From assembly GCF_021028975.2 (NCBI RefSeq), contig NC_059436.1, forward strand, positions 58,900,001-58,964,000: a stretch of 64,000 nucleotides of DNA. The letters run 5' to 3'. How positions within the stretch are numbered: the stretch's first letter is position 1; each line of letters opens with the position of its first letter. Made by a program: the position numbers and the translations under genes. Shown one piece after another: positions 6,457-55,453 of the stretch. A model generated the notes under the pieces. The model had not been told where the DNA came from and ran no database searches. It saw nothing but the letters and a program-made list of their open reading frames with translations. This DNA comes from Sphaerodactylus townsendi. Lineage: Eukaryota.

Positions 6457-6484
6457 TGACTCTGGTGGTAGTGCAACATCCCAT

Positions 6485-14847: not shown

Positions 14848-14939
14848 AGCAGATCTGTTCATTTTGAGGAAAATGAGAGAGCTATGTCTTCAGAGGGGGC
14901 CCACCATGACTAGACCCTGCCCCATGATGACTGGCTCAA

Positions 14940-17900
14940 TATCAGGAGGCCTGTTATTATGGGGATTTTGCTATTGCTGCTTTCTGTATGCTGGGGATGG
15001 AGGAATGGGTTAATTGCATTTCTAACTGACTTTCAACTGTCTTCTGTATGATGTTATACTGTACCAGGTGCTGCTCAAGGTCAGTGCCTGGCCGTCTCTA
15101 CCGTTATCTCTTTCACAGTTCCTTTTGGGTGCGCTTCCCCAGGATGGGGGGTGCAGTCTGCTTTAACTACTGGGTTTTGTGTGGGCAAACCTCAGTTCTG
15201 GCATGACCAGAGAAGATCCTCAATACTCAATAAACTACTGTTCTTACACATGAGTTTGTTTCAGTTTTTGGGATTCTGACATTATGCCAGAACTTCTCTT
15301 AGGTTGAATTCCATGCTGCCGTGCATTGCTGGAATTTCACCTTCTACTTTTGCAACTTTTATCAAAGACTTTTCTTGCCAGTATGATCTCTTCAGAGACC
15401 CAGCCAGGGGGTGCATCCGCGGCTGCAGACCATGGGTGCCCCATTCCTGAAGACTTAACAGGAACTTCGGATTCAGCCTCTGACCCAGCAGAGGGGCCTC
15501 GGATCCTGCTTGGAAGTGCAGCAGGCAGAGAAGCCCCTACCCCAGGTGGATTTTTGGACTCCATTCACCCGTTCATGACTGCCCCGCTAGATGGCTTGGA
15601 GGGAGTTACCGTGTGTCGTCGTCGGGGTCTGGACTATCGAGAATCTCAGCCTTTGGGTTTGGGCAGTGCGACGTGGGCTACAGCACCTTTGGCTGGAAAT
15701 GTGTAGTTGCCAATCCGTCCATCGGAAGGGGCTGATTAATCGGAAGCTGAAGCCTGGCGGATGCTCCAAGTGTTGGAGGAGGCCTGGGATTCAGAGCGTG
15801 AGGAGTACCACTGGGCCCTGCACCAGATGGAACGGGATATAGAGCACCTGCAAGCCACCCTTGCCCAGGCTCACCAAGTAGCCCCTGCTCCCGGAGCTGG
15901 AGTAGCCATAACGCCAGCTGCCCCAGCACCAGCTCAGCCTGCACCAGCACTGGCACCAGCTCTGCCTGTCCAAACGGGACCCACCCCAGCGCCAGTACCC
16001 GCTCAGCCTGCCCAGCCAGTTCCGGTTCCAGCTCCAGTTCCTGCTTGAGCACCGGTACCAGCCCAGCCTGTCCAACCAGGACCCGCCCCAGCACCAGTAC
16101 CCATTCAACCTGCTCAACTGGTGCTGGTACCGGCCCCAGCTCTGGCTCCAGGACCAGCTCCAGGTCCAGCTCAGCCTGTTTACCCCAGACCCACCCCGGC
16201 TCCGATTCCAGTACCAGGCCAGCTGCCTCTCCAGCCAGGCCCCCCTTGCTGCCAGCTGCACCTGCTCCATTACCGGTCCCGCCTCTGATGCCACTGTTTG
16301 TACCACCAGGATGGGGAGTTCCGGGTGGAGTGTTGCCAAACTTTGCACCCTATGGGGTAGCTCCCCCTCCGCTCATGCCCAGGATCCGGCTGACTACTCG
16401 CTTTGATGGGACTCAGGACTTGCTCCCGGCTTTCCTGGTTCAGGTCAATGCCCACATGTTGCAGTATGGGCGGCAGTACCTGAACAATTTTGAGCGTGTT
16501 TGTGAGGTAGGGTCAATGCTAGATGGCCCTGCAGCCAATTGGTACATGAACCTGTTTCAACGTCAAGCTGCAGAACTGCGCAACTTCCAGGATTTTATGA
16601 TGGCCCTACGCTGCTGCTTCGAGAGCCCATTTGTGGGCGAGCAAACAAAACAGGAACTCATGGAGATGCGATAGGGCAAAACCCCTTTTGCTGAGTTTGT
16701 TGAAAACTTCCGTACCGTGGCCAGTAAGATCCAGGATTGGGATGATCCTGTGAAAGTGTTCGTTTTCAAGAAAACCCTAAACCCGGACTTGTTAAACTGG
16801 GCTCTTGTTCAGGGCAGCCCGCAGACCCTGAAGGAGTGGATTGTACTCGCGGGTACTGCAGACACTAGAATGTGTGAAGCAGCCACGTTGGGGGTTCAAG
16901 TCGGATGATCCCCACTTGCCCAGCTGCGTCGGGCGGTGCCCCAAGTTCCAAGCCTACACGCCCTGCTCCTTTGAAGTGCCAGATCTCGCCGGAAGAAAAC
17001 GCTCGCCGCCATATGAATCTCTGCCTGTATTGTGGCGGGGAGGGCCATATTGCTGCGTTTTGTCCCACCAAGCGCACCCCCACTCCAGCTACTTCCACCC
17101 TGGCAGCCAAGCCGGCCAAGCCGACCAAACTGCCGCCAAGAGGGGGTGCCCGTGCAGCAGCTCCCCACGCCACTGGGGGGAACAGCCGATTCCTTGGGAG
17201 CCTCCCAAGCCAGAGCGGGTGAGTGAAGCCATAATTCTGCCCCTTGTTCTGACCAACAGGCCCGGATGCCCAAAGCTAGTGGTCCAAGCCCTTGTAGATG
17301 CCCGAAGCTAGTGGTCCAAGCCCTTGCTGCTCTCACTGTTTAATACATCCCCGTTTGGTGGAAGCACTTGGGCTGCAGCCCATTTTGTTGAAGGAGACTA
17401 TCCGGTTTGACCAAATGAATGGCAGTCCAATGGGCGGCGGTTCCATCACATCTCGCACCCCAAAAATCCTGGCCAATTGTGAGGGGCATTGGGAATGCCG
17501 TAGCTTCATAATTGCCCCCATCTCTCAGTACCCCGTGATATTGGGACTATCTTGGCTTGTGGATCATGACCCATTAGTGAAATGGTCTCAACGTGTTTTG
17601 ACTTTTACCAATCCTCCTTGTGGAGACCACATGAGCCCTGATCCACCCGAACACTTGCTACATCCGCCTGAGGGACTCGCTCGCGCTCTGTCCCAACCTT
17701 CAGTTAACCCTGAAATTCCCTCACCGTACCGGGACTTATGGCAAGTGTTCGAAGAGACTGAGTGTGATTCCTTGCCGCCCCATCGTGATACTGACTGTAA
17801 AATCAAACTGGTCCCTGGAGCTACACTACCCAAGGGACAGCTATATTCCATGAGTCCTGCTGAGGATACCGAGTTGCGGGCGTTCCTGGATAAAAATTTG

Positions 17901-20900
17901 GTGCGCGGGTTCATTCGGAGGGCGCGCAGCGGTTTTGCAGCCCCGGTTCTGTTTGTGAAGAAGAAAGATGGTTCCCTGTGGCTGTGTACTGACTACAGGG
18001 GTTTGAACGCTGTTTCGGCCTCTAACAAATACCCGTTACTCCTGATCAAGGATTTACTTGCAAATCTTGGCTCGGGACATATTTTTACCAAGTTGGACTT
18101 ACATGAAGCCTATTACTGGATGCGTATGGCTGAGGGCCATGAACATTTGACTGCTTTTAATACTCGCCATGGACAGTATGAATACTTAATCATGCCTTTT
18201 GGGCTTTCTGGAGCCCCCGCCGTGTTTCAGAGTCTGATCAATGGGATTTTGGATGACGTCGTTCAAAGGACTTGTTGTTTATTTGGATGATGTTTTGATT
18301 TACTCCCATGACGAAGAATCACATATTGCTTTGGTCCACGAAGTGTTATCCCAGTTACTGGCGAATTCCCTGTTTGTGAAACTCTCTAAGTGCAAATTTC
18401 ACAAGCCTCAGTTGGATTTTTTGGGCTACCGCATTTCTGCTGCTGGTTTGGAAATGGAGCCCACTAAGGTTGCTGATGTGCAGGCATGGCCCCCTCCTCA
18501 GACTCCTAAGCAACTCCAGTCCTTTCTGGGCTTTGCCAATTTTTACTGTGACTTTATCCCTCACTTTTCCTCCTTGGCTCTCCCTTTGACTGATCTTTTG
18601 CGTACCAAGGAGAAAGGTCCTGCAGCTTCCTATCCTGGTGCTCCTTTGGTTTGGAGCTCTGCTTGCCAGTCTGTGTTTGATTCCCTGAAAGCTGCCTTCA
18701 CTTCTGAACCAGTTCTCGCCCAACCTGACCCTTCCTTGCCGTTCGTGGTACACGTTGATGCTTCAGACAAGGCTTTGGGTGCTGCCCTACTTCAGCAGGG
18801 TTCGGATGGTCGGCTCCACCCCTGGGCGTATCTCTCCTGCAAGTTTTCAGGTGCTGAACTTAATTGGACTGTTGGTGATAAAGAAACCTGTGCTATCAAG
18901 GTCGCTCTTACTGTGTGGAGGCATTTCTTAGAGGGAGCGGAGCACCCCTTTGAGGTCTGGACTGATCATAAAAACCTGGCTGGACTCTGCTCCCCAGGCC
19001 GGCTTTCCGTTAAAAAAATCCACTGGGGGGACTTTTTCACGCTCTTTCGTTTTACAGTTCATTTTTTCCAGGGCAAAACCAACTGTTTGGCAGATGCCCA
19101 GCCCTGCTTGCCAGAGGGGGGGAGCGCAAAGTGGATCCTTTGCTTTCCCGCACTATTCTCTCCCCCACCCACTTGGGCTTGGCTATTACCTGATCGCAGG
19201 CGAAGGCGGAGCCCCCGCCATCTGTATCTCCTCCTGGACCCCTTCTCTCCACCTTCTTGAAGGCGGGAAGTCCCCGGTGCCTCTTGCAGAGGGAGGCGAT
19301 GGATTAGTATTACGTGACGGCATTTGGTGTCATGGCTCGCTGTTGTATGTCCCGCCCCATCTGCGGTCTCAAATCCTCCACCAGGGGCATGATTCCAAGT
19401 CGGCTGGTCACTTTGGCTTTGTAAAAACTTTGCATTTGCTTCGCAGACAATTTTGGTGGAAGACCATGCATAAGGACATTGACGCTTATATCAAGGGCTG
19501 CCCTATCTGTGCTATGGCAAAAACCATTCCAGGCAAGCCCCAAGGATTATTGCAGGACATTGAGCTGCCCAGTGGGCCCTGGCAGGTGATCTCCATGGAT
19601 TTTATTACGGACTTGCCTTTGAGTCATGGCAAAATGGTGATCTGGACTGTAGTTGATTTGTTCTCTAAGCAGGCTCATATTGTACCTCCATCCCCACTGC
19701 TCAGAAACTGGCTGAACTGTTTATGCTGCATATTTACAGGTTGCATTCTGCCCCCAGGAAAATAATCACGGAAAGTGCGCCTAAAAGTGAGTGTAAGGAG
19801 ATAACAGAAGATGGGCAAGTAACGGCCTTGACACCACCTGGTATTACTCCACATTCTACAGCAACTGAGAAAAGACAGTTAGAAATGCAGTTAACCCCTA
19901 CCAACCTCCTCCCAGTGCAATGAAACAGCAGCATAAGCAAAGTCCCAAACCAGGCCTCCTGACACAGGGGTTTGCAATTTGTCTCCCGCTTTTGGAGGGC
20001 CTTTATGAAGTTGTTGGGCATTGAACAGGGGGTGTCCTTGGCCTACCACCCCAATCTGATGGGGAGTCTGAAAGGTCCAATCAGACTTTGGAACAGTACC
20101 TGAGATGTTATGTGAACTATCAGCAAGATAACTGGGTTGACCTGTTGCCCTACATGGAATATGCTTACAATAACTCAGTTCATAGTGGTACAGGCAAGAC
20201 TCCTTTTGAAGTGGTCCATGGTCATTCGGTTCCCCCTCTGCCCATGCTCCAGTCAGGAGACGCCCCTGGACCCGAGGTTAAGGAATGGATGCAATCCATT
20301 GCTGATCAGTGGCCCCCTATCTTGAAAGCACTTCAGGAAGCTAGAGACTCATACAAGTGGCAAGCCAGTAAATGCAGGCGTGACTTCCCTCTAGTGGTCT
20401 ACCTCTCCACCAAGAATCTCCGGGACATACATCAGCCCTCGAAACTGAGTGTGAAGTATATTGGGCCCTTTAAGATTGTCAGAGTGATAAATAAAGTGAC
20501 TGCTGAACTGGAATTGCCTAATGCTTTGCATAAAATACACCCTGTGTTTCATTGCAACCTTCTGAAGAAGACATGTTCCCCGGATGTCTGGCATTGAGAG
20601 AAGAAGACTCCTCCTCCGGTCCGGATTGATGGGACTAAACATTATGAACTTTCTGACATTCTTGATTCTCGCATCTATCGAAACCGCTTGCAGTATTCGG
20701 TCTCTTGGAAAGGTTGTTTACCTGGGCAGAATCAGTGGATATTTGCCAAGGATGTTAAAGCCCCCCGCCTCGTTAAAGCTTTTCATCAAAACTGTCCAAG
20801 CAAGCCGGGGGGAGGGCCCTAGAGGGAGTGGAATGTCAGGACGCCTGTTATGGGGATTTTGCTATTGCTGCTTTCTGTATGCTGGGGGTGGAGGAATGGG

Positions 20901-21171
20901 TTAATTGCATTTTAACTGACTTTCAACTGTCTTCTGTATGATGTTATACTGTACCAGGTGCTGCTCAAGGTCAGTGCCTGGCCGTCTCTACTGTTATCTC
21001 TTTCACAGTTCCTTTTGGGTGCGCTTTCCCAGGATGGGGGGTGCAGTCCACTTTAACTACTGGGTTTTGTGTGGGCAAACCTCAGTTCTGGCATGACCAG
21101 CGAAGAACCTCAATACTCAATAAACTACTGTTCTTATACATGAGTTTGTTTCAGTTTTGGGGATTTTGACA
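14940..21171 (+). mobile_element. Gypsy A: full-length Tf1/sushi-like chromovirus, decayed
   Basis: LTRs 14940-15281 and 20834-21171; PPT AGAGGGAGTGGAA; near-TSD CTCAA/CTCAT; gag-PR-RT-RH-IN-chromodomain. Confidence 0.95.
15382..20822 (+). pseudogene. Gypsy A gag-pol
   Basis: Pro/Ala-rich gag (15890-16290), RFDGTQ capsid, CLYCGGEGHIAAFC, YLDD, WTDHKNL, ISMDFITDLP, HPVFH, chromodomain YELSDILDSR...WKG...QW. Confidence 0.92.
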
Positions 21172-24665: not shown

Positions 24666-24986
24666 TGTCAAATTCCCTGTTCAGACAATAACTCGCTTGA
24701 TAGTTCAAGGATTTTATTGAAGACAAGAGACAGACAGCAAAAAAAGGCTATTCTGGTGATTTGGTGCCAGAAGTGTTGATAATATAATGCAGCAATTCCA
24801 ACCCCCACATGTGAATCAAAGCAGTGAAACAGTCCAGCCTGAAGTCTCGTTTCAGTGTGGAACTTCAAGGCCAGAGAACCAGATAAGTCACCTGCAAGTG
24901 CTAAACCTCACCCCAGCAATGGCATTCTGACATTTCCGCTTCCCCTAGGGCCCTCCCTCCGTTTGCTTCGACAGGCACAATGAAAT

Positions 24987-26812
24987 TACAACACAAGCCT
25001 TTATTGGCATACAAAACAGGACAAAATTTTAAAACAAAACAAGGTTAAGAAGCGCAGTTAAAGGATTCGCTACTAATTTCCAGTATGTACCTGCAACTGT
25101 CTCACAAAAGAGCAGCCATCAGAGCTGTTCAGGAGATTGGGTATCTTATAACACTCAGCTGCCACTGAGAACATTGCAAGAAAAAGATGCGAATTCATGT
25201 ATTTAATCGCGATCTTATTGTATTTAGGGCATAGAAACAGAGAATGGTCAAGTGTTTCCAACCGTAGTCATATCCACATGAACACACTCTTTGTAGAACT
25301 GCCCATATTCTTAAATCTTCCCTCCAGCAGAGCTGATATAGCACATGACATCTTGCAGTAGCTAAGGCTCTCCCTCTGGGTGGGATTAATCAGCCAGACC
25401 TAGAGATATGCTGCCATAATTCCCTTCCGCATGGTGGATTAAATAATGTAGTCGGAGAACAAGGGTTGTCTCTTGGCAAGTTAACGCAGTCAAATTATGA
25501 AAAATCAAGATCCAAGAGCCTATTATTCTTAACTAGTCTGAAGGCTTAGTTAACTTGAGGCCTCATGAATGCGGTTTAGATGTCTTTTTAACCTTTGTGA
25601 GCATATGAGTGATTCCAAGGGGAAACCAATAGCTTCAACCTTTCTAAAGATCAAAGTATACTATTCTGAAATAGTGATCTGATAACAGAGAGGGAATATA
25701 GCTATTGAATCCCACTAGAAAATTTATATGCAGCCAATATTTTGTGGCCCTTATCCATGGGAATGTCAACTCAATGCATGGCAGCTGTGAAAAAGGCAAA
25801 CTCTATGTTGGGGATAATTAGGAAAGGAATTGAGAATAAAACTGCAAAGATTGTCATGCCCTTATATAAAGCTGTGGTGCTAATCAAGCACTTGAGTACT
25901 GTGTTCAGTCTCTATCGCCACATCCTCAAAAAAGGATATCGAAGAGATAGAAAAAGTGCAGAGAAGGGCAACGAGGATGATTGAGGGACTGGAGCACCTT
26001 CCTTATGAGTAGAGGCTGCAGAGTTTGGGACTCTTTAGCTTGGAGAGGAGACGTCTGAGGATATGATTGAAGTCTATAAAATTATTATGCATGGGGTAGA
26101 ATGTTGACAGAGAGAATTTTTCTTCTCACAATACTAGAACCAGGGGGCATACATTGAAAATGCTGGGGGGAAGAATTAGGACTAATAAAAGGAAACACTT
26201 CTTCACGCAACGTGTGATTGGTGTTTGGAATATGCTACCACAGGAGGTGGTGATGGCCACTAACCTGGATAGCTTTAAAAGGGGCTTGGGCAGATTTATG
26301 GAGGAGAAGTCGATTTATGGCTACCAATCTTGATCCTCTTTGATCTGAGATTGCAAATGCCTTAACAGTCCAGGTGCTCGGGAGCAACAGCCACAGAAGG
26401 CCATTGCTTTCACATCCTGCATGTGAGATCCCAAAGGCACCTGGTGGGCCACTGCGAGTAGCAGAGAGCTGGACTAGATGGACTCTGGTCTGATCCAGCT
26501 GGCTTGTTCTTATGTTCTTATGTTCTTATGTTCTTATGTTCTTATGTTCATGCCAAAGTTTCTAGAGTTGTTTGGCCCATCTCTATGCACAACACAGCAT
26601 AAGGCACACATCTAGGGAGCCCCATTAGTTTTCGAAGGAATTTGGAATGTAATAAATTAAATGATTTATTTACTGCCGAAATCCAAATGGGGGAACCGTA
26701 CAGTAGCAAGGAGCCAATCGTAGGCTCAAAAACCTTCAAAGCCGCAGGAATGTATTGATTGCCTTTACTGTTAAAAAAGTGATATATTGCCATCATGTTG
26801 GTATGATACATG
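24987..26812 (-). mobile_element. 5'-truncated RTE-X-like LINE inside the Gypsy E chromodomain
   Basis: 14-bp TSD AGGCACAATGAAAT (24973-24986, 26813-26826); LLYGSPIW; ETLDHSLFLCPKY; AATAAA tail. Confidence 0.88.
25752..26547 (+). mobile_element. CR1 LINE 3' end
   Basis: AVKKANSMLGIIRKGIENK...PLYKA; (GTTCTTAT)n tail. Confidence 0.93.
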
Positions 26813-27361
26813 AGGCACAATGAAATGCTTTAATGAGGCGGGGGACTCTGATGTCATCTGCATTCACCCACTCATTCTGTCCAGGTGTATAGCCTTTCCA
26901 GGATACCAAGTGTTGCAAGTGGTTATGATAGATGTGAGAGTCCAGCACGTCCTGCACTTTGAAATGTTTGGCCCCATCAATACAATACATAGTCACATTC
27001 CTGCGAGTGGGGTGGGACTGTGTTGGGCTTCGGCCTGGTTGGGGCGGGGGGGGGGGGGGCTGTGAATCCTTTGACCAGTTTCTGTGGAGGGTGGTCGTGC
27101 GCAGCCGGCGGGGAGGGCCATATTGCTGTGTCTTGTCCTGCTAAAAGCACTCCAACCCCAGCTACTTCCACCCCAGTGGCTAAACCAGCCAAGCCATCTA
27201 AGCCGCCGCCGAAAGGGGGTGCCCATGCAGTGGCTCCCCACACTGATGGAGGGGATCAGCCAATTCCTTGGAAACCTCCCATGCCGGAACGGGTGAGTGA
27301 AGCTATCATCCTACCCCTTGTTCTGACTAACGGGCCTGGATGCCCAAAATTAGTGGTTCAA

Positions 27362-28993
27362 AATTAGATGGTATTCCTGGTCGGGTGTTAAAGGAATGCG
27401 CTAACCAACTGGCTGGTGTTTTTACTGGGATCTTTAATCGATCTTTATCCCAGTCCACCATTCCATCTTGTTTGAAGGCTTCCATCATTGTTCCACTACC
27501 AAAGAGATTTCCTGCTGACAATCTTCAGGATTATAGACCAGTGGCACTCACCCCCATCATCATGAAGTGTTTTGAAAAACTGGTCCATAGGCATATTAGT
27601 TCTTGCCTTCCAGATACATTTGATAAAGCGGCATCAGGTTCAAGCATATCGGACCAAAACAGATCTACGGAGGACGCCATTGTTACCATTAGTCTCCCCA
27701 CACTGCTTTGACGCATCTGGAAACAACAGGGGAATTATGTAACGAATGCTCTTCTGGACTTTAGTTCACTTATTTAATACGCTGTATCTTGCCACAAAGA
27801 CTGGTGACAGTAAACTTTGTGGGATCTTGGACTCTCAAGATTTCAATCTGTTTTGTGGATTAAAGGGGACTTCTTGTCTAGGACGATCCCAGAGGGTTAG
27901 AGCTACAGGAAGATCGGGTTTCCTCAGTTCTTACTTCCTAAATATGGGAATGCCACAGGGTTGTGTGTTGAGTCCCTTTATTGTTCTCCCCTCCTTTATA
28001 TACATATAGATTGTACTCCTGTCTATCATAGGTAAATACCACCATTATCAAATTTGCCGCATTGACCTTAATAACGGTGGGTGGGGCTCATCTCTGGAGG
28101 GGATGAGTCTGCCTATCGGTGCGAGGTGGTAATTCCGACTGCTCTCATGGTGCAGTGGAAAATAACCCTGGTTCTTAATACTAAACAAGACAAAAGAGCT
28201 TATAGTGGACTATAGAAGGGGAATAGTTCAGAAATTCAGCCTCTTGGACTATAAATGGACATCAGAAGTAGGCGGGTAGGCTAGTTTTAAATTTCCTGGT
28301 GTTATGATTAAAGAGGACTTAACCTGGGGCATACAGACTGGCCGCTGTGGTTGAAGAAGGCTCCAGCAAAGAACTGTACTTTCATTCTGAGGACTTTGCT
28401 AAGGAAAGCTAACAACTGGATGGAAAACTCCTCTGAGGGTGTCCTTTACCGGCTGTGCTATAGAGAGTGTCTTAACCTACTGCATCTGTGTGTTTGGTTC
28501 TCCAGTTGCACAGTGGCAGATGAGGAGAGGCGCTCCAAAGGGTGATCTACTACCGCACAAAGGATTATCGGCTGCCCTCTTCCCTCACTTGGAAGAAATC
28601 TATATAATTCTCAAGTTTTCCAAAAAAAAAGCCCAAAATATTCTGATAGGATCCGCCTCATCCAGCACACTCTCTTTTTGAACCAAGCTACTGCATCTGG
28701 TAGGCGATACAGGACTATCAAATCTAGGACAAAGAGGCTTAGAGACAGCTTTTACTCTAGAGCTGTGGCTATGCTAAACTCCCCGGCTTCATGTTGATGT
28801 GTTTGGGGCTGTGTAGGGATGGGTGGAGGAAGGGGGAAGTGAGGATGATGTATGAGTCTGAAAGTGTATGAGTATGATGTATTGTATGAAATTGTATGAG
28901 TATGATGTATGAGTCTGAAATTGTGTGCATCGAGGAATGCTGCTGTAAATTTCGTTGTGTGTGCACAATGACAATAAATGCTTATGCTTATGC
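27362..28993 (+). mobile_element. 5'-truncated Rex1/Babar LINE
   Basis: DGIPGRVLKECANQLAGVFT, DYRPVALTPIIMKCFEKLV, PQGCVLSP, IESVLTY; AATAAA plus (TGCTTA)n tail; TTCAA on both sides. Confidence 0.9.
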
Positions 28994-29649
28994 TTCAAGC
29001 CCTAGTTGAATAGGCTGCTCTCATTGTTTAATACACCCCCGTTTGGTGGAAGCACTTGGTCTGCAGCCTGTTTTATTAACAGAGACTATTCGGTTTGACC
29101 AAATGGACGGCAGTCCTCTGGGCGACGCACCCGTTACTTCTTGCACCCCAAAGATTCTGGCCAATTGTGAGGGGCATTGGGAATGCTGTAGCTTTATACA
29201 ATAGACCTTTATTGGCATAAGATACAAAAGCGTGATTATAGACCATCACTAAATTTAAAAGAGTTGTACATGGCGTCTATGAGTAGTTTTACATTCTAAA
29301 ATCACACTTCATTTATAAAAATAACGTAGATTAAAAAATTTTGTCCATTCCATTGTACACGGGATTGTGAACAGGTATAGTAAAACTACACTTAAAAGAC
29401 AGGATTAAGATATTCGTTATTCATAGCCTATTTACTAAAAAGGTATAGCCTTCCCCAAGATCTATAAATTGTATATACTAATTAATACTATAAATTAATT
29501 AAATTTCCATAAAATGCAATAAATAACAGTGAGCTCCTTATAAACACCTTCTAAAATACCCCAGGAGTATCAGAGGTGTGGAGTATTTCACATTTAAATA
29601 GTTTTGTACTTGCCTATTTTACATACCTCTTAGGGACATGACTTGCAGC

Positions 29650-32600
29650 AAATAATTGGCTATTCTCCCAAGTATAGAAGGATTATTACTGTTTAACAAT
29701 TTTGGGATTGATATTTTGGGGGGCACATTTCCCATTATCCAATTTGGTAAGTACTAAAAGAAGCTTCCCTCTGGGGATTATATTTTTGGGCAATAAGTAA
29801 CATAAAATGTGGTCCAATCGTTTCCACATAACTTAATGGTGGGACAGAAAGGAGCATAGTCCTATGTGATAGAGGCCGCTTCTCAATCCCGGCTCTTTAC
29901 AAAAGAGGCAGGAGGGAAAAAACATTGCATCCTGGTCTCGAGTCAGTACCCTAAAAGCCGTTGTTTAGAATCCGGGATTTGTAGCATTAAGTATTTGTGT
30001 GCCATCGTGCCAGGCTCAGTGGTTTATACCAAAGTACAATGGGGAGCATGTTGTTGTTGCACGATTAAGGATTGCTAGATGTTGATATCTCCCTGATCCT
30101 TCATATAATAGTCTAAAGTTTCGGTAATTAGGTTATATATTTGTTGGGGGTCCTTCAATACCAACTCCTCTAATGAGAAACCCAATGAATTGAGTTTACC
30201 ATTGATTATATTCCACAACTCTAAGCTTTGGACCTCAACTAAAGCCCTATGCAGTAGGCTTCCGTGTTGTAGCTTGAAAAGCATATCTTTATCCAAAACT
30301 TTAAAGGGTAAGTAGCCCAGAAGCCCTGGTAGTTAATAAGGTGCATGCCCGCTACCAAGCATAGCACCCCATAGTAAGGCCACACAATGTGGGACTCCAA
30401 ATATTTTGTAAGAGAAATGCTGATTGTACCTTTTTCAACCGCTTGTTGGACCAAAGCGGTAATCCAGATGGAACCTCGGTAAAGGAGTTGTTTGCAAGAC
30501 TTTTTTTGGCCTGGAAGACCTTTTGAAAATAGCAGAGGGAATATGGCTTTTGGCCTTTGGAGTAGAAAAAAAGTTATTCCACTGCATTTATTGTGACCAG
30601 TATCCCTTTCCACCGCTGGCATTTCTATGAGTGTACCCATGTTGGTGTTGAATTCCCCAAGATGGATCCTCTAGGTATTTCGTTATGATTTAACCTGTTC
30701 TATGTCCTTTCCGTGCCTATAGACCATTTATGGATTTTAGTAGTCTATTCAGAAAAGACCATTGATTTTTTAGGTTTTTCGCAAGTGGTATTGATAATAT
30801 TTGCTAAAGAAGCTGTTAGTTTGTGCAATTCTCGCGCACATTTACATTTGACCATAAGAAGGTTTGAGAATCCAGCTCTAGTTCTTGAGAGTAGAATTGC
30901 ATCATCCTGTATAAAGCAGGATGGGAGTTGGGATGTTACTCTTAGACTGGACAACATGTGTTTATTTGCTGTTAAAGTTGGAGCCAAATCATTTAGAAAC
31001 AGATTAAAACAACGTGAGGGCCAAAATACACTTCTTGTTTTTTTACACCGGGTTGTTGTTAAAATTTTTGGAGTGAGTTATTCTCCTCTTGTGCACACCT
31101 TCACCTGGGAATAAGATTTTATAGGTGTAATAGTCTTATCAAAGAGAGTAGTCTATTTTCTTAGCAATTCCCCAGTAAGGGTTCAAGTTTTTTAAGCCAT
31201 AGAGCTTGTTTCTTTTCAATGCAGCACAGATGAGAGATCGAACGCCCCCTGTAAATCAAGAAAGGCAATATATACAGTTTGGAGCGACCTCTTCCTGATG
31301 TCATTTAGCTCAGGAAAAAGGAATTAGAATCAAGGAGTAAACAATGATGTTCAACGTAGCAAATTACCCTTTCCTAAAACCAATGTGTTCTAAGCTACCT
31401 AATGACATTTTATTCTGCTCAATCCACTTTTGTAGGCGATTGAGCAGGAGACTTTGCATACAATTTGCACCATACCTGCTACTGATAACAGGCTAATTGG
31501 CTCTCTATAAGGAAGGTGTAGCGCAGTGGTAACCGTTAGGATCCTACCTTTCTTATAAATTGGAACAATAACAGCCATTGGTCCTCAAATCCCCAGCATT
31601 TACTGCCACGTGTTAGTGATCTCGGTGAAAGAGAGTTTTTTGCTAATACTCAGGTGACCCACTTCAGTCCACATGATTCTCTTTAAATCTCGGAAATTTC
31701 TGGGGGGGGAGCTGGTCAGGTCCAGATGATTTATAAGGTTTTAGATGTCTAATAAGATTTTTTTATTTCTAACTCCGTGACTGGTGGCCAAAAGGGTTCA
31801 CTGATCAAATAGTCAATGTCAGGAGGTGAAGTTTCCGCAGACAGTCCCTGGAAATATTGACTAAAATAATCAAACCATTGACTTGGACGTATAGTGTTAC
31901 AGAGGGAAGAGTGACTGCTCGTTCTTTTGGCTACTATCTGGCAAAATTTCCTGGTATTCTTATCTCTCGCTGCTCGTATAAGAGCATCCCATTCATCTTG
32001 TACATCCCATTCATCTTTAAGTGATTGTGTTGGAGACGATGTGCTAATGCAGATTTTAAAGCAAAATAGTCAGTTGGAAGATTGACTTCATTGGTTGTAG
32101 TATGTTCAGAGTAGATATTTCTTAGCTGGACCTTTATTCCTCAACATTCATCATCAAATATTGCTTTCTTATGTCCGTCCTGATATTGTATATTGCTTGT
32201 CTTTTGTCCCTCCATATAATCAGCTATGTGTCTCACCAGATTGTCATATTTCTCTATGAGTACAGAAGGTGACTCGGAAGTTAAAATTTGCTGTTTGAGT
32301 TCTTTCATTTTTGGCATGGCAAAAAAAGTGTTAAACTTCAATCGAAAGGATTTGTTCCAACGTACTATTGGTAAAGTGCAGTTGGTTTCTGTATTCTCCA
32401 GTATGTCAGGAGCCTCAGAGAGAAGTGTTAATTTGAGTGGTAAATGATCACTCCATGTTTGATGACTAATTTGATAGTTGACAATATATTGAAAAATGGG
32501 CTGGGAAACCAGAATATGATCTGGAGAACTACAACCACGAGATGAAAGATACGTGTATTCTCCTGCGTTTTGAAATTTGGTTAATCCTGTGAGATTGATT

Positions 32601-33211
32601 AAATCAAAATATAAGCTTAATAAAGTAAGTTGGTCACCTGCTGCATTTCGAATTTGGTCTTTGCATCTTCTTCTCAATGCAAAGTGCCATGGGAGAGATT
32701 CTATATCTAAATCCATGTATTGCTGTAAATATGCTTCATTATCACCAAGTCTGGCATTCCAGTCTCCTGCTAATATTAAAGATGCCTGAGGATGTTGAGA
32801 TAATATATCCTGTAAATATTCTGTGAATTTGTCCCAATGACACTTAATTTCATCTTTCGTTGATCCAGGTGGGATATATATATTAATTAATATCCATGGG
32901 GGGGACTTATCCCTCAGTATAAGCACGTGAGCAATTTGGTCACAGTGTGGACCAGTATTGTAGGATAATCGTCTCTCAGCTTTGAGTAATATTGCCAAAC
33001 CTGCCTGGTATCTTCCTTTTCCACTTATTCTGTATGCTGGCAGTGGGATTGTGATGTAATTTCTGAGGTGGGGAGTACCCGGGTCCCAGGTTTCTTGGAG
33101 ACAGATAATGTCATATCTTGATAAAAAACTAATTACATCTGGGTTGTAGGATTTACTGCGCCATCCTGCAACATTCCAGGAAAGTATTTTTAAAGTTGAT
33201 GGAGAACTTAG
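29650..33211 (-). pseudogene. LINE ORF2: APE endonuclease open 33211-32141; RT region frameshifted (possibly sequence errors)
   Basis: Manual translation from 33211: LSSPSTLKILSWNVAGWRSK...CLQETW..., continuing into ORF 32141-32998. Confidence 0.85.
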
Positions 33212-34816
33212 TCAATCTTCATGATGTATTTCATCCAAGGTCCTGGTGGGATCGAAGAACACACATCCATTTGGGCTATTCTCATGGAGTCTTAATCCCG
33301 TTTGGGGTTTATTATCAAATTCATACTCCCGATCAAAGGGTGCGATTTTCTGTGCATTATTCTGTGTATTCGGTATATTATCTCTGATCTCGTGAGAGAT
33401 ACCATAATTCCCATCTATAGGTGGGTCAATTCCAGGGCTCTTCTTTGATGATTGACACTCCATAGGGACTGCTTGTGTAGATGAAGGGAATATATGTTGA
33501 ATTTCAGCAAGTTCTTGTGCCCACGATTTCCCTGTTTTTTTGTCCTCTTGAGCATAATTTAACACTCGGCTTGGCCATCTATCAATTTCCAACTCAGGGA
33601 ATGGTATTGTGCGGATCTCTTGCCCAACCAACTTTGGGCTAGAGGGTTTGTTGTTTTTGTCTGCTGGCGATAACATAACTAATAAAAGGGAGGGTTCTAA
33701 GCTATTTGCTAGAACTCTTTGTGGCTTGCACATCTTTGAAGTGTCCATGGTGCTCCTTTCTGGACTCAAGCATGTTGCATCATGCCTATTAAGAATGCGA
33801 TTTTGCTCCCTTTCCTTCTCCAATTCCATCCCATGAAAGTCTTGCATACCGATCACCCTTTCCTGCGTTTGTTTCTTTGCGCTGGGACTAGGATGCTTCA
33901 TTACTTCCTTAGCCGGCTGCATTCCTGTCTTGTAAATGTCTGTTTCCTTATCGAGTTCCAAGGTAGTTTTATTCTCATGCCTTTTTTGTGTGGATGATTT
34001 CTTGTAGATTAATGGTTGTATGATGGTATTTTTAAAAACCCGGGATGGAATCAAGCCTTTAGATACTAACCGAGCTCTTCTGTGCAATAGCTTTGCAGGA
34101 ATTCTAGATGAATTAAAAGTTAGCAAGACTCTCAATTGATGATTTCCATTGTCCATCATTTCTATTGAGCGTAGATTAACATAATGCATATCTTCTTTTA
34201 GTAATATGCTAAGATGGTGCTTAGCCAAATAAATTTTACTCCAGTCAGGGACTATGCCTCTGTATTTACCAATGGTTAAACAGATTTTATTGGGTAAGAA
34301 TAGCAGGTTGCAGGCATTGCTGTCTGGTCTGCTTTTCTGATGGGGTTTGAGGCTTGTGCCTTTAATAGGAGTGGTCTTGATGGGACTAGTCTGAGGCTTG
34401 CTTTGAGCTGTTAAATGGTCTTCAGTGCGTTCTTGCTTTTTGGCGTCCATTATTGCATTCATTTTGCCATTTAACAGTTTAAGCTCATTATATATGTATT
34501 CAACTGTCCCCACTAAGAGAGACACAAGGCTAACTAATTCTTGCCTGTCGTCTGATAGCATAATATTACTGGCTGCACTCCCAGTTGCAGTAATTGGTGC
34601 ATTCTGCTCATTTGTAGTTTTACTAGTAGACATTCCTGTTTCAATTTCTTCTGATAAGCTTTCAAGGGAGTTTTCATCTCCCAACACTGAATCATTATCA
34701 GCTAACGCCTCATAACGATTTGCTATTGGGATTTGGAAAAAGTCCCGTATTTTAGGTTGTTTAGAAATGGGAGGAGAGGTCTCATCTTTCTCTCTGGTCC
34801 GTTTTTTACTCCCCAT
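33212..34816 (-). CDS. LINE ORF1 protein, 534 aa from the first ATG, intact
   Basis: Uninterrupted ORF; basic N-terminus MGSKKRTREK; IPIANRYEAL motif; short coiled-coil-like segment. Confidence 0.8.
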   Translation of the reverse strand: MGSKKRTREKDETSPPISKQPKIRDFFQIPIANRYEALADNDSVLGDENSLESLSEEIETGMSTSKTTNEQNAPITATGSAASNIMLSDDRQELVSLVSLLVGTVEYIYNELKLLNGKMNAIMDAKKQERTEDHLTAQSKPQTSPIKTTPIKGTSLKPHQKSRPDSNACNLLFLPNKICLTIGKYRGIVPDWSKIYLAKHHLSILLKEDMHYVNLRSIEMMDNGNHQLRVLLTFNSSRIPAKLLHRRARLVSKGLIPSRVFKNTIIQPLIYKKSSTQKRHENKTTLELDKETDIYKTGMQPAKEVMKHPSPSAKKQTQERVIGMQDFHGMELEKEREQNRILNRHDATCLSPERSTMDTSKMCKPQRVLANSLEPSLLLVMLSPADKNNKPSSPKLVGQEIRTIPFPELEIDRWPSRVLNYAQEDKKTGKSWAQELAEIQHIFPSSTQAVPMECQSSKKSPGIDPPIDGNYGISHEIRDNIPNTQNNAQKIAPFDREYEFDNKPQTGLRLHENSPNGCVFFDPTRTLDEIHHED

Positions 34817-36866
34817 TTTAAGTGAGCTGTTCTTCACAAGAGGTGTAGAAATTTAGAAAGTTATAAATAGCTGATAAGAAAAGAAAATAACAAGCCTTAT
34901 TGGAGCTAGTTTTCGTGCTGCCGCTCCCAGGATGCCGGACTGAAGTTTGGTGGAAGCACTTGGTCTGCAGCCTGTTTTATTAACAGAGACTATTCGGTTT
35001 GACCAAATGGACGGCAGTCCTCTGGGCGACGCACCCGTTACTTCTTGCACCCCAAAGATTCTGGCCAATTGTGAGGGGCATTGGGAATGCCGTAGCTTTA
35101 TAATTGCTCCCATATCTCAGTACCCCGTGATATTGGGATTGTCTTGGCTTATGGATCATGACCCGTCAGTGAAATGGTCTCAACGTGTTTTGCCTTTTAC
35201 CGATCCACATGAGCCCTGATCCTGAATACTTGCTTCATCCACCTGAGGGGCTCACTTGCGCAGTCTCAACCTTCTATTGACCCTGACATTCCCCTGCCGT
35301 ACCGGGATTTATGGCAGGTTTTCGAGGAGACTGAGTGTAATACCTTGCCACCCCATTATGAGACTGATTGTAAAATAGAGCTGGTTCCTGGAGCTAAGCT
35401 GCCAAAGGGTCGACTTTACCCTACGAGTCCTGCGGAGGCTGCTGAACTGCGGGCGTTCTTGGCTAAGAATTTGGTGCGTGGGTTCATCCGGAGGGCGCCC
35501 AGCAGTTTTGCCGCCCCAGTGCTGTTTGTTAAGAAGGACGGTTCTTTATGGCTGTGCACTGATTACAGAAGTCTCAACACGGTTTCTGCCTCTAACAAAT
35601 ACCCGTTGCCCCTCATTAAGGATTTACTTGCAAATTTTGGTTCCGGGTGCATTTTTACAAATTGGACTTACATGAAGCTTATTACCGGGTGCGGATGGCT
35701 GAGGGCCACGAACATTTGACTGTGTTTAATACTTGTTATGGACAATATGAATATTTAATTATGCCCTTTGGGCTCGCAGGGGCATCGTCTGTGTTCCAAA
35801 GCCTGATCAATGGAATTCTCAATGATTTGTTGTTTAAAGGCGTTGTTGTTTATTTGGATGATGTGCTGATTTATTCCAAAGATGAACAATCTCACATTGC
35901 TCTAGTTCATGAGGTTTTGTCCCGATTGTTAGCAAACTCCCTGTATGTAAAACTCTCTAAATGTGCTTTTCATAAGCCTCAGTTGGATTTTTTGGGCTAC
36001 CGCATTTTTGCCACTGGTTTGGAAATGGACCCTGCCAAGGTGGCTGATGTTACAGCTTGGACTCCTCCTAGAACTCGCAAACAACTCCAGTCTTTCCTAG
36101 GTTTCACCAATTTCTACTGTGATTTCATCCCTCACTTTCCCCCTTTGGTGCTCCCTCTAACGGACCTTCTGCGCACCAAGGGGGGGGCGTCGGCTTCCCG
36201 CCCTGGTGCTCCTTTGACTTGGAGCCCTGCTTGCCAGTGTGCGTTTGATTCCCTGAAGGGTGCTTTCACCTCTGAACCTGTTCTCGCCCACCCCAATCCC
36301 TCCTTGCCTTTTATTGTCCATGTTGATGCTTTGGATAAAGCTTTGGGGGCTGCCCTACTTCAGCAAGGGCCTTCACCCCTGTGCTTACCTCTCCCGCAAG
36401 TTCTCAGGTGCTGAACTGAATTGGACTGTTGGTGATAAGGAAACCTGTGCTATTAAGGTTGATCTCACTGTTTGGAGGCATTTCTTAGAGGGAGCGGAGC
36501 ACCCCTTCAAGGTCTGGACTGATCATAAAAATCTGGCTGCTCTCTGCTCCCTGGGCCAGCTTTCTGCCAAACAACTTCATTGGGCAGACTTTTTCACGCG
36601 CTTTCGTTTTACAGTTCATTTCTTCCCGGGCAAAACCAACTGTTTGGCTGACGCCCTTTCCTGCTTGCCAGAGGGGGAGGAGCACAAGGTGGATTTTTCA
36701 TTCTCCTGCACTATTCTCTCCCCCTCCCACTTGGGCTTGGCTGTTATCCGGTTGCAGGTGAAGACAGAGCCCCCACCATCAGTTTCTCCTCCCAGCCACC
36801 TCCTCTCCGCTTTCTTGGAGGCTGGAAAGTCCCCGGTTCCTTTGGAGGAGGGTGGTGATGGGTTGG

Positions 36867-39800
36867 TGTAAGGAATTCCAAAGAGCAGAAATAAAAGGCT
36901 TTTGGATATAAGACCGTTTATTCAGACATCTTAGAAAGCACACACACACGACATGACAGGAATGAGGCCTCCCACCCAAACTACAGGTTATAACTCAATC
37001 CCTTCCCCCTCCCTGGGCCATCCAGGCCCATCTCATGGGAGCGGAGATGCCTATCTTGCAGTCAGCAAAGATAAGCCGTCCACCAAAGGTTAAGTTTACC
37101 CGTCACGATTCTGTAGCCCGCTCGCCCGGCTGGGAGGCGATTCTGTCAAGGAGCCAGCTGGCTCTGGGGAGAGAACCAGAGCAGACCTATGCCATCCTTA
37201 CACTCTGCTTCCCCCAAGGAAAACCTCCCCGAGCTTGTCAGGAAGAGGCTTTTGTGAAGAAGAAACAGCAATGTGAGGGAGGGGGCATCAATATTTTCTG
37301 TATATGCCATTGATTATGTGCCAGGAGGGATATGCCACAACCCATGAAACCAGAAGTACTGTAGGATGATTAAGTGGAAAAAGCGGGAGTCCAGAATAGC
37401 ACTCTATTTCAAAGTGCTTGTGGCCATCAATTGCACTTAACTGGCGGGGGGTGGCTCCGGAGAGTGCGTTGCCAGGAGCATCCTGGTGGAATTTTCATGG
37501 AACCTCCTTGAGCAGAAGCTGGAATGGAAGACAGGGTGAATGTTGTCTGCTGCAACATGATTTAGAGCAGTTCCCAAAACGAGCGGTAACATCATTGATC
37601 ACCTTTAGCCATGTATCCGAAAAGGGCCCGCAAATTTCTTGCCAAGGATTTTGAATGGCACATTGCCTGCCGCGTCTCTAGGGTTTTTAGTGGAACAAAT
37701 AGACCCGCCCCAACTGCACTTATAAGGGAAGTCCGGCGGTACGCTTGTCCGCTTCCTGAACCTTTTTGTGATTGCTTGGGCCTGCTGTAAAAGGTGGAGC
37801 TGCACTGTTTTCCAACCCCTCGGCTAGCGAAGAAATCCATTTGTTTACACGAGATTCTGGAGGCTGCGAATTTACCTCTGCAGGAAGCTGGGAACAACTA
37901 TGGTGGAAGAATATGACCGACCAAGGAAACAATCTCGAACGGCAGGTCTTTTCTAGCGTGCTACTATGAATGGCATTTGTTATCACGCATACTCTGCAAA
38001 AGAAGTGCATCGCACCAATTGTCCCTGATGATAGTATAACAAGCGTAAATACTGTTCTAGCGATTCTGTTCGTCTGCGTTCTGAGTTGGCCCGTCACTTT
38101 GAAGGCGATGGTAGAAGGCGACGACGCTGGGGTGGTTCCCAACAGCTCCAGGAGAAGGCCTTCCAAAACTCAGATATGAATTAGAGGACCGCGGTTCGGA
38201 TACAACCATATAGGAGAGGAGTGTAGGCGATATAGATATGTTGGAATAAACAAGCAGAATAGGATTTAGGTTGCCGACGGCGGATGGTGGTGCAAGGGAA
38301 TAAAATGCGCCTGTTTAGAAAAAGATCCGCCACCTACCCATAAAACAGTGTTCCCGTGGCTTTCCGACAAATCGGTTATAAAATCCATGGAAAATGACTT
38401 GCCAGGGTCCCGAGATGCAACAGGGAGGGTTTGGCAATAGCCCATCGCGGCTTTCGGTATCGACTTGGCTTCCGCACAGGCGGAACACCTGCTGATATCG
38501 TGTTCAATGTCTTTGCGCATGGAAGCGCTCACCAGAACTATCGGCCGGGCCAGATTTGCAACGTGGTTCAAAACCGAAGTGCCCAGCAGGCGGGCATCAT
38601 GACATGTTGAGAACCCACCCGCCTCCGGCGAGGAGGGAGGGACGTAGAGGGGGCCATTACACTTGCCTCCCCATTTCCAAACACCATCTCCTCTAAACCC
38701 AGTTGTGAATCTCCTTCCTCGCCACGACCAGTTACATGCGGAATTCCCGCCTCCTTGAATCCCTGGAGGAGAGGGGAGGCGATGTTAGGGATGGTGTAGA
38801 CCGGAGAGGAAGGAGCTGCCGTAATTTGTGATGGGGTGACAGCTAACTGAGCTGGGAGGGAGAAAGCACGGTGCGCGGGATATCTATCTGTAGTAATGTT
38901 TCCCCCCCCTCCCCGGGAAGGCGAGGACAAGCCCGCATCAAAATACCGGTTTGTTGCTTTACCAGGAAAGAAATGGACGGTGAAAGAGAACCTGGAGAAA
39001 AAAAAATCATTAGCGCAATTGTTTAGCAGACATTTTTTTGAGTGGTGTGGACAGGGCAGCCAGATTTTTATGATCTGATAAACCTGGAAGGGGTGTTTGG
39101 CTCCTTCTAGCCAGAGGTAATAAACACTCAATACCGGCTTTGATAGCCGCGGTCTCCTTATCTCCCAATGAATTACAGCGGAGAAATACTGGCTGGGTTT
39201 AAAAACGTGCAGGACTGGCTTCACCTCCTAGAGGACACCATCCATTTGGAGTGAGAGGAATGGGTTTCACCAAAGGGACTTCGGTCTAAAACCAAGTTAA
39301 GTCGACCACTTGTGGCCTCATGAGATGCAATGGGAACAGCCCAAGTCCACAGGTCACGGAAAGCCAAGAATAGCGCGATATGTTGCTTGGGTTGGCTAAG
39401 TGTAAGTTCAAAATGGTAATGGGAGCACTGCAGCTTCACTGCTACGCATCTGGAGTGGGGTTAATGTCCCTCGGGTGCTGCTGACAGGCAGAAGCTACAT
39501 CTCCGTCCTCGAAATCTTCCTCGATAGCAGCTTTAAAACTGATCCCTGGAAGTGCGTGGACCCATGATTTACGATGGAGGCTTGGCTGAAACACCAAAGG
39601 CGTGTAGAAGAATTTGGGGTTTTGCTTCAACCCCGGACAGTCGGCAAAGGTGCCCAGGCCCCCATTGCGCAGTAAGAAGAGCCGATAATCGCCAAAGCGG
39701 CGGCGACGTTCAGGCGTGGATTTCAGCTGCCAAGCGGCAGGAGTTGGATTTGCGAGTAATTGGTGCTGGTGTGCATTGATGGCGGGTTTTAGGCGCTAGG

Positions 39801-42148
39801 CGGCCATCTCTTGCAGCAGGCAGCGCGCAAGACGGGCAGCTGACTTGTGATCCCAGGATTCGATCCATTAGGCTATTGTCCGCGGGATCCGGATGAGGAT
39901 AACCGTTTCGAAGCAGTTTGAATGTCCATGCCTTGAAAAGTACTCACATTTCATGCGTTCCGGCCAATCTGGAGGGAGTTTACTGGCCGCTACACGCAGA
40001 TTTCCGAACGTATTCAGCCCAGCGAAAGAAGCGGTTACCTTGTTGGAACGTGGTTTTATATGCGTATTGCAGCGTTTTTTCTGCATCGAGATGCTTACCG
40101 GAAACAGAAGGCGTAGCATATATGGACGGAACCCCGCCACTGTGCGGTGTCGTCAGCCTATGACTGGCAATTGCGGTAGAGAGTAGCGAACCGATTCAGC
40201 CACTACCTGCCATCCAGTACCTTTGATCAATGTGCTACGGACTTTCTCGCGTTCTCAGAACGATACATAGGTCATCATACTCTTCGCGCATACTGGGCAT
40301 CGAGGTTGCTTCTAGAATGAAGTAAGTAGGGGAGTTTGATGCACGTCCCGTCAAAACGAAGCTGGGATGGAAGCTGGTCTGTAAAATCCTCTCTCAACAG
40401 TTCGAGATTATGCGTGTTGAGGTTGTTACTGTAGGTGGCCTGGTTGTTGCAAGGGAGTAGAAAATTATGGCGGAGCTGGAAGGAACCGGGAAAGAACTGA
40501 AGGCGCCCTATTACAGGTTGGGGGCGGCTGAAATCGGAACCTCGAGAAAGTACCGTGCCTCCGGCAGGAGGGGAACTGAAGGCGTCCGGGGAGAAGGTAT
40601 GGCCTCTATCACGGAGCGCTTGCCAGTGTAGCCCGCAACTGTTTTCGCCGAAATCTGCCGATTCTAGGAATCGACCGAAGCTCTTTCTTTCGCTAGCGTC
40701 AATTCAAAAAAAAGGTCGTCCCGCAGATGCGCATGCACAGAGCCGCACTACGATCCGATTTAGCTTTCGTTCATCGCGCATTTGTATGGCTGTAGTCAGT
40801 TCAATTCTGCGTTTGGATGGCCTTGATGCCTTCGCGCTGGCGTTGTAAATCCATTTTTGATTGATCCAGTACTTTATCGCGAACTGTCAGATTCTTTGCT
40901 TGGAACTGTCGGCATAGCGCTTCTCTTTTCAGCGATCCAACTCTATTTTGCGGATTTCTGCGCGTTACTTCCTCACCGGTCCCGTTGCAGATTTTCCGTA
41001 GCTCTCCTCTTCCCAGAGTTCGCGTTAACGCTCCAGAGCAAGTTTGGCTTCCACGCCCAGCAGGCTACTTCATACGTCCCAACTTTTCCTTCGAGAGCAT
41101 TGGGAGCGAGATCGTCAGGATCCGGGATTAAGTTCCACCTCCAGAGCGGACTTCTTTCGATTCCTCCGACCGGCTCCACGGAGCTCTTCCATCCGTTCAC
41201 CTTGCTCCCGAGCTCTGGAGCGCAGTTTTAGTAATAAGAACCCTCTACCCGATCATCGAATCCAACTTCGCATCGCTATAGTTCCAGCCTCAACACGTAG
41301 TGCTTGGGGGTACGCGCCCCGGTGCACTGTGCCACTGCTGCTCCTTAGGAATATCATCAAAAGTACTTGTCTAGGAATCTTTCCATGGATTCCCTGGAAT
41401 TGTCCTTTATGGATGGTTGTCCAGTCCCAGTTCCCTCCAGGGACTGGCAGCTGCATTTAAGGAGTTTATAATCCACTCGTTGTCGGAGGGAAATGAACGG
41501 TCCAAGCAAGGCGCCGATCCATGGATATTGCACCAAAGCGTTTCATGCATCTCCCACGTGAAATCGGACCCACCTGATATTCATCCCAATCCTGAAACAA
41601 AGACGAACTTAATACTGTCTCTAGGTCTGGAGAGAGTCACCAGAGAAATCGGGCCATCTCCATACCTAGATCCCTCCCGGAATCTGGAAGGGAAGGCTCG
41701 AAGCCCTCTATGGGGGAGACTTCATAAATTGCCTTCCACATGGTCAAGCGTACTCCAATCTCTGCATGTCGAAACACCAGAGATCCGCTTCGATGTAACA
41801 AGCGTAGGTTAAAAGTGAGTTACCTGTCAAGCAATGTAAGGAATTTCCAAAGAGAGCAGAAATAAAAGGCTTTTGGATATAAGACCGTTTATTCAGACAT
41901 CTTAGAAGCACACACACACGACATGACAGGAATGAGGCCTCCCGCCCAAACTACAGGTTATAACTCAATCCCTTCCCCCTCCCTGGGCCATCCAGGCCCA
42001 TCTCATGGGAACGGAATGCTCATCTTGGTCAGCAAGATAAGCCGTCCACCAAGGTTGTTGCCGCCGATTCTGGCCCGCCGCCCGGCTGGAGGCATTCCGT
42101 CAAGGCCAGCTGGCTGGGAGAGAACCAGGCAGACCTGCCATCCTTACA
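36867..42148 (-). mobile_element. Gypsy G: chromovirus-like, internally deleted (no RT)
   Basis: LTRs 36867-37202 and 41835-42148; TSD GTTGG; PPT GGGGGAAGCAGAG; SMDFITDL and LEGAKHPFQV remnants. Confidence 0.9.
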
Positions 42149-55336: not shown

Positions 55337-55453
55337 CTACCAGCAGGGGAAAAGCAAATAGAAAAACTTCAGTGTACACATTTGGTTTAAAAGCACCACT
55401 GGAATATATCAATTCTAAACAAAAGATCTAAAAGGCAAGCTTGCTTGACATAG

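Follow-up and report, generated by a model that had tools for sequence, protein, structure and literature searches.

Long target-site duplications (TSDs) have been described for several groups of long interspersed nuclear elements (LINEs). Full-length L1 copies mostly carry TSDs of 10-20 bp (PMC4245944). With human L1, TSDs above 100 bp accounted for up to 10% of the events in HeLa cells and for 57-91% of those in cells deficient in nucleotide excision repair, and Servant et al. proposed a distant, unrelated second nick as the source of these large duplications (PMC5223499). The zebrafish element ZfL2-2 gave a 1228-bp TSD in one of 25 wild-type inserts in chicken DT40 cells (PMC2666801), and the rotifer element R9 shows a stagger of 126 bp (PMC6895275). 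Here we analyse a comparable case in a stretch of 64,000 nucleotides of the squamate reptile Sphaerodactylus townsendi (assembly GCF_021028975.2, contig NC_059436.1, positions 58,900,001 to 58,964,000 of the forward strand; hereafter the window, whose own numbering is used throughout). In it, a near-full-length LINE lies within an older Gypsy retrotransposon, termed Gypsy B, and is flanked by a 158-bp direct repeat of Gypsy sequence that is probably a long TSD.

Each of the described systems resembles this locus in part. The de novo human L1 events share with it an element of the apurinic endonuclease (APE) type with two open reading frames (ORFs) and a duplication of more than 100 bp that exactly flanks the insert as a rare outlier, but they are engineered, 5'-truncated insertions in cultured cells, whereas the squamate LINE is apparently natural, nearly full-length, of a non-L1 kind and without poly(A) (PMC5223499). 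ZfL2-2 offers the parallel of a non-L1 APE-type LINE with a single long TSD, and differs in belonging to the L2 clade and in having been observed in a reporter assay in a foreign host rather than as a genomic copy (PMC2666801). R9 is likewise a natural genomic non-LTR (long terminal repeat) insertion with a TSD of the same size order (PMC6895275). It is, however, an R2-type element specific to ribosomal DNA (rDNA), with a restriction-like endonuclease (RLE) and a long TSD throughout its family, whereas for the squamate LINE, with its APE endonuclease and Gypsy target, one copy is known; endonuclease and target together rule out an R9-like, RLE-bearing, rDNA-specific element. Youngman is said to have described, in 1996, a Caenorhabditis elegans Rte-1 copy flanked by a 200-bp direct repeat; Rte-1 is reportedly a single-ORF element of the RTE clade of about 3.3 kb, as against the 534-aa ORF1 and length of about 5.5 kb of the squamate LINE. 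Our literature search, made on titles and the openings of abstracts, with most subscription papers and supplements outside its scope, found nothing on natural TSDs above 100 bp for LINEs of squamates or of the RTE-X clade. The present LINE is a new natural example of a long TSD, not of a new mechanism. How the second nick of LINEs is made is still treated as an open question (PMC12809410, PMC6895275); a model of local melting and displacement has been put forward for TSD formation (PMC6895275), and cleavage by L1 near Okazaki fragments has been discussed (PMC12809410).

The two copies of the repeated unit (29041-29198 and 34945-35102) align over 158 bp without a gap and with one mismatch (blastn E=1e-75), and the match ends exactly at the borders of the LINE, whose 3' tail starts at 29199 and whose 5' end lies at 34944. 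This confirms the observation with which the analysis began, namely a 158-bp repeat with a single CpG-type mismatch abutting both LINE ends, and the direct repeat expected of a TSD is thus present at both ends of the element. The last 3 nt of copy 1 can equally be assigned to the LINE tail, so that the duplication measures 155-158 bp. The mismatch falls at unit position 147, with T at 29187 in copy 1 and C at 35091 in copy 2, and is a CpG-type transition: the CpG is present in copy 2 and in a paralogous element of the window, Gypsy A, and is TpG in copy 1. Because Gypsy A also has C in a CpG, the T of copy 1 is the derived state and the CpG of copy 2 the ancestral one. The two copies are 99.4% alike, against 85% for the paralog within the window, where a 344-bp pair at 14938/20832 (95%) is the sole further direct repeat to reach 94% identity. 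Terminal repeats of the LTR type are ruled out, since what is repeated is a coding part of Gypsy that keeps the register of the target, and so is 3' transduction, as no second tail follows the duplicated unit and the target continues seamlessly.

Gypsy A lacks the insertions that disrupt Gypsy B and serves as a pre-insertion reference. It aligns with Gypsy B in four pieces (27107-27361, 29014-29198, 34945-36867 and 42156-43822), of which the second corresponds without gaps to Gypsy A 17326-17510 and includes 27 bp upstream of copy 1, while Gypsy A 17353-19308 aligns to 34945-36867. Outside the repeat, both the flank before copy 1 and that after copy 2 carry the target on, in register and in frame, and removal of the LINE and one copy leaves an unbroken target collinear with Gypsy A on both sides. 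Because intact Gypsy A shows both outer flanks continuing the target, the repeated unit is duplicated target DNA in the geometry of an insertion. Gypsy B is interrupted three times, by a truncated LINE that we take to be Rex1-like, by the 5.75-kb LINE and by an LTR element. The LTRs of the last (36868-42148) differ by 18 gap openings and only 7 mismatches; apart from the gaps, which are errors (see below), these 7 mismatches indicate that this element is also young. Gypsy A itself has, at 17265-17326, a tandem duplication with a 32-bp period in place of a few bases, which resembles a templated repair scar and adjoins the position corresponding to that of the Rex1-like LINE in Gypsy B.

The LINE is oriented on the minus strand, and its true length is probably a few hundred bp below the assembled one once insertion errors are removed. 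Its ORF1 is open and has no Pfam family and no usable match in the ESM Atlas; over 240 aa it shares 43% identity with a protein of Sphaerodactylus townsendi, and a named relative of the endonuclease comes from Rhineura; such protein matches speak for a squamate host, probably a gecko. The open first part of ORF2 ends in an in-frame stop (32141-32143), a CpG-type change at which all family reads listed differ. A frameshift-aware alignment of ORF2 extends over about 1055 of the 1113 aa of a homolog (P0004) that carries both PF03372 and PF00078, so that the endonuclease and reverse transcriptase (RT) of an APE-type LINE are both present in ORF2. The element is probably full-length or nearly so, to judge from the intact ORF1 start 128 bp from its end, from the ORF2 coverage and from family reads reaching the last bin. 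At the 3' end AATAAA is followed by a tail unit that is known from this copy alone and that matches the target over 3 nt.

As to classification, L1 elements are marked by a poly(A) tail and an ORF1 domain of the L1 type; the absence of poly(A) at 29199 and of a Pfam family in ORF1 rules out this clade. We presume an RTE-X-like affiliation. RTEX elements have an ORF1, an ORF2 with APE and RT, a C-terminal cysteine-histidine knuckle and a short tandem-repeat tail; in the present LINE two ORFs are found, the knuckle is clear in the homolog P0004 and falls here in raw sequence, and the tail unit is inferred. The closest named proteins are squamate, and no named RTEX sequence was among the matches, which bore no names apart from two squamate 'uncharacterized' proteins. 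The RTE clade in the strict sense (RTE-1, SR3) is ruled out by the 534-aa ORF1 and the length of 5.7 kb, its members having a single long ORF and about 3.2-3.9 kb, with at most a tiny upstream ORF (PMC1291365). RTEX is named as a clade in Repbase (PMC5753468), and the literature search found no TSD survey for it. For each genome equivalent, the family of the LINE is estimated to comprise about 6-8 copies of the 5' half and 50-60 of the 3' end (run X8; a genome of 2.0-2.5 Gb is assumed, and raw zones lower the mapped read depth). Other copies with their flanks were sought with an exact 24-nt tail pattern (0 matches in metagenome_contigs), in viral_contigs (none) and by ORF2 alignment, which returned 80 loci with protein identities of 27-41% but no DNA similarity to the LINE; 5 of the 80 have internal direct repeats (39-434 bp, 74-90% identity) that are too diverged for a TSD call.

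We consider it probable that the repeat is a true long TSD, produced by target-primed reverse transcription of this APE-type LINE into the older Gypsy element, and still more strongly expect a real duplication made at the same insertion if a replication-coupled variant is included. The endonuclease would have nicked the plus strand where the 158-bp unit has its AT-rich end, and the 3' end set free, held to the repeat tail of the RNA by about 3 nt of pairing, would have primed cDNA synthesis to the 5' end of the element. The end on the opposite strand would have lain 155-158 nt away instead of the usual 10-15 nt, through a cut made there or a pre-existing nick; a polymerase crossing this interval by strand displacement, and the filling in of both strands, would have left two copies, of which copy 1 later underwent one CpG transition while the LINE took up a few more changes. 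Consistent with this, the tail unit extends 3 nt into the target at the junction, as against at most 1 nt at all 26 positions that a short TSD (5-30 nt) would imply, and the matching trinucleotide occurs at 0.7% of minus-strand positions of Gypsy B; a tail running into the target is also seen in two same-clade neighbours. A further point in favour of a long TSD is that its one mismatch arose by transition at a CpG, which also holds for 5 of the 9 private differences of the LINE considered below. Most likely the family forms short TSDs as a rule, and the present one is a rare, isolated exception.

Several observations weigh against this reading. Genomic TSDs of the RTE clade are mostly 7-15 bp (PMC6007223, citing Ichiyanagi and Okada). 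The tail unit was inferred from a single unit and picked after looking, so that the support from microhomology is weak. Reads of runs X8, X2, X3 and X1 (4 of 8 candidate runs, none listed as long-read and none containing half of the words of the stretch) were mapped on 28500-34974, and no read or contig crossed either junction among the 15 of 97 joints, 24 of 1206 loose ends and 24 of 18935 pieces listed, the joints and loose ends being filled by the tail of the very high-copy Rex1-like LINE. No empty allele was seen with these 150-nt reads, which are shorter than the 158-bp unit, on a mapped stretch that ended 30 bp into copy 2. Finally, raw, consensus-like and diverged zones stand side by side within the LINE, which means that the assembly mixed evidence of uneven quality.

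The extent of this unevenness can be gauged from ORF2. Relative to three homologs, the ratio of DNA to protein length stays at 0.92-1.04 upstream of about 31.9 kb but reaches 1.04-1.21 between 29.9 and 31.7 kb, the DNA of 29800-31750 being mostly 10-21% longer than homologous proteins predict, and the surplus bases are missing from the family contigs of three runs (e.g. 306 letters against 328 bases, with 22 gaps, and 166 against 178, with 12 gaps). Because the ratio rises only in 29.9-31.7 kb and the family contigs lack these bases, the ORF2 frameshifts downstream of about 32.1 kb are mostly sequencing error; the same two observations rule out ancient decay as their source, which, had it been read from the shattered frame, would conflict with a recent insertion. 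The body of the Rex1-like LINE and one LTR of the 36868-42148 element show the same raw insertion errors, and the excess of gaps between the two LTRs is independent evidence of raw-read patches. Such insertion-rich patches, typical of unpolished long reads, lie at 29800-31750, 28500-28700 (probably from about 27600) and 37040-37202, and broken frames within them are mostly errors. Within the LINE, comparison with family contigs (among the 40 of 386 rows listed) gave 0 differences in four X2 contigs totalling 1708 bp (32458-34683), 9 substitutions in one X3 contig, all within the 417 bp of 32041-32457, and 3 differences in 224 bp at the 5' end. The zero-difference middle may have been polished to the family consensus; alternatively, the copy may truly be a mosaic or have undergone conversion.

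That much of the LINE is at raw-read quality keeps alive the alternative of a mis-join, which we nevertheless hold to be unlikely. According to it, a heterozygous insertion with a short TSD was assembled such that the left flank follows the empty haplotype for 158 bp beyond the true site and then enters the LINE, the join having come about by gap filling or a haplotype switch and the mismatch being allelic. Such an artefact is favoured by the patches of raw long-read sequence that lie to either side of copy 1 and within the nearby LTR, as such patches are typical of gap-filled or thinly covered regions, by the quality mosaic inside the LINE and by the lack of junction reads among those listed. 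An artefact would, however, be expected at a border between clean and raw sequence. Copy 1 is gap-free over 158 bp against copy 2 and over 185 bp against Gypsy A; because it has no gaps despite nearby raw zones with about 4-7% extra bases relative to family contigs, it appears to sit in a clean island rather than in raw sequence. The left junction seems to lie inside this island (about 28700-29800), some 500-600 bp from the raw border, a weak point that draws on the 12 of 109 indel rows listed, none of them in 28976-29852; both junctions seem to be in clean sequence. A mis-join would also leave the tail microhomology at the 3' junction unaccounted for, as it is absent at every short-TSD position, and the copy-specific letter at 29633 in the 3' untranslated region (UTR), at which 73 of 73 X8 reads differ, shows that this region was not simply overwritten by the family consensus.

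Comparably improbable, in our estimate, is a replication-coupled duplication at the same insertion, in which break-induced replication or template switching lengthened the far end ahead of its joining to the cDNA. It would give an identical sequence, and a preprint invokes break-induced replication for small tandem duplications that are associated with L1 and classed as large TSDs; those published are nonetheless 1-10 kb long and somatic or experimental (bioRxiv 10.1101/2024.12.14.628481). The 5' junction, moreover, seems to be free of extra nucleotides and templated inserts. The original prediction of a giant TSD from widely staggered second-strand cleavage is accordingly to be divided: a long TSD is the best reading and has precedent, whereas the widely staggered cleavage is not singled out, since a cut by the element, a pre-existing nick and a replication-extended end would look alike in the sequence.

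Doubtful, too, is the idea that a TSD of about 150-160 bp is the rule for full-length insertions throughout this family, the second nick being set by chromatin, through one nucleosome, or by an Okazaki-fragment nick already in place; a nucleosome and an Okazaki fragment would both be of about that size. The least probable account invokes two separate events: either two independent family insertions, 158 bp apart in two Gypsy copies or alleles, were later linked within the LINE through recombination or mis-assembly, or an older tandem duplication was hit exactly at its seam without a TSD. It can draw on the LINE halves, which differ in quality and in divergence from family contigs, and on the small tandem duplication of Gypsy A at 17265-17326, which shows that such duplications arise in the target family. 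Against it stand the smallness of the LINE family, the two copies far more alike than the paralog, and low odds, about 1e-4 to 3e-3, that among 100-1000 copies of the target any would have received another 5' end no more than 200 bp away; these odds take assumed values for the size of the genome and the number of targets, and hold unless this sequence is a preferred target of the family.

The age of the insertion is best considered with these patches in mind. One mismatch in 158 bp corresponds to a divergence of 0.02-3.5% (95% interval), and polishing with short reads could have raised the likeness of the two target copies. Against family reads, the LINE has 6 private transitions in 417 bp and 2 in 224 bp; since the 9 private differences examined are all transitions, 5 of them at CpG (one creates the in-frame stop), they look like real mutations. 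The zero-difference middle is unusable for dating because it was possibly polished. Per-copy ageing of 0.2-1.4% is compatible with the single mismatch (P 0.87-0.07). The copy is thus young on an evolutionary scale, but aged rather than new, and is probably inactive. The proposal that near identity implies a recent insertion holds as far as youth is concerned; given the wide interval, the private transitions, the stop in ORF2 and the possible polishing, it does so only loosely, and TSD identity in a polished, patchy assembly is a poor clock.

The window contains at least five further LINE pieces of the same broad clade, all truncated and of other families, among them 5255-6465, 12863-14941, 24985-25700 and 26554-26781. 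The truncated LINE at 48271-52605 lies inside another RT-coding element, and its own 3' part seems to be interrupted by another insert, about 0.9 kb long (about 51330-52220). Among the five fragments tested, two have clear short TSDs, one a doubtful one and two none in the ranges searched. The TSDs of 9-14 bp that had been ascribed to related truncated copies are thus clear at 9 and 13 bp, with no 14-bp case, and belong to other families. These fragments suggest the usual TSD size of the clade. Because none is similar to the LINE at the DNA level, and the closest reaches 29% protein identity in the endonuclease, they are no matched control, silent on full-length versus truncated copies of its own family.

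Other repeats of the window include a long, near-perfect inverted repeat at 55453-56291 (arms of about 380 bp, 95-97% complementary, with a 79-nt spacer), probably a miniature inverted-repeat or foldback element, and short, tight hairpins at 11228-11393 and 22027-22166 (arms of 80 and 69 bp, 93-97% complementary, with spacers of 6 and 2 nt). The features discussed are collected in Table 1.

Table 1. Coordinates of the LINE, its Gypsy target and related features in the window.
Feature	Position	Strand	Remarks
Same-clade LINE fragment	5255/6457		clear 9-bp TSD
Same-clade LINE fragment	12863/14933		doubtful 9-bp TSD
Gypsy A, paralog without these insertions	17034..21171	+	~81-86% identical to Gypsy B
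Gypsy B, left piece	27107..27361	+	81% to Gypsy A 17034-17287
Truncated high-copy LINE nested in Gypsy B (presumably Rex1-like)	27362..28993	+	5-bp TSD; 47 bp upstream of copy 1
Unduplicated Gypsy B upstream of copy 1	28994..29040	+	29014-29040 matches Gypsy A
Duplicated target copy 1 (Gypsy pol segment)	29041..29198	+	adjoins LINE 3' tail; derived T at 29187
Near-full-length two-ORF APE-type LINE	29199..34944	-	5746 bp as assembled
LINE 3' end, AATAAA then one short repeat-like unit	29199..29213	-	unit runs 3 nt into target; no poly(A)
LINE ORF2, RT and C-terminal part	29800..31750	-	raw insertion-rich sequence
LINE ORF2 start, apurinic-type endonuclease	32144..33211	-	open, 356 aa; PF03372 E 6e-12
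LINE ORF1	33212..34816	-	open, 534 aa; no Pfam family
LINE 5' UTR	34817..34944	-	128 bp
Duplicated target copy 2	34945..35102	+	adjoins LINE 5' end; ancestral CpG kept
Unduplicated Gypsy B downstream of copy 2	35103..36867	+	collinear with Gypsy A
LTR element nested further right in Gypsy B	36868..42148	.	5-bp TSD
Same-clade LINE fragment	48271/52593		clear 13-bp TSD

The shattered ORF2 of this locus is mostly sequencing error, which should caution against reading such frames as decay, and a single copy is an anecdote that would gain weight if a census revealed a size class of long TSDs in the family. Standard TSD searches that are limited in length would miss a duplication of 158 bp; one survey, for example, limited TSDs to 49 bp with flanks of 200 bp (PMC6007223). 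Should the doubtful case of a family-wide long TSD prove true, the family would be a non-site-specific counterpart of rotifer R9 that was missed through such searches. The long TSDs cited here come mostly from cultured cells, and the reptilian, non-L1 case described here shows that the outcome can reach the genome, duplicating host DNA.

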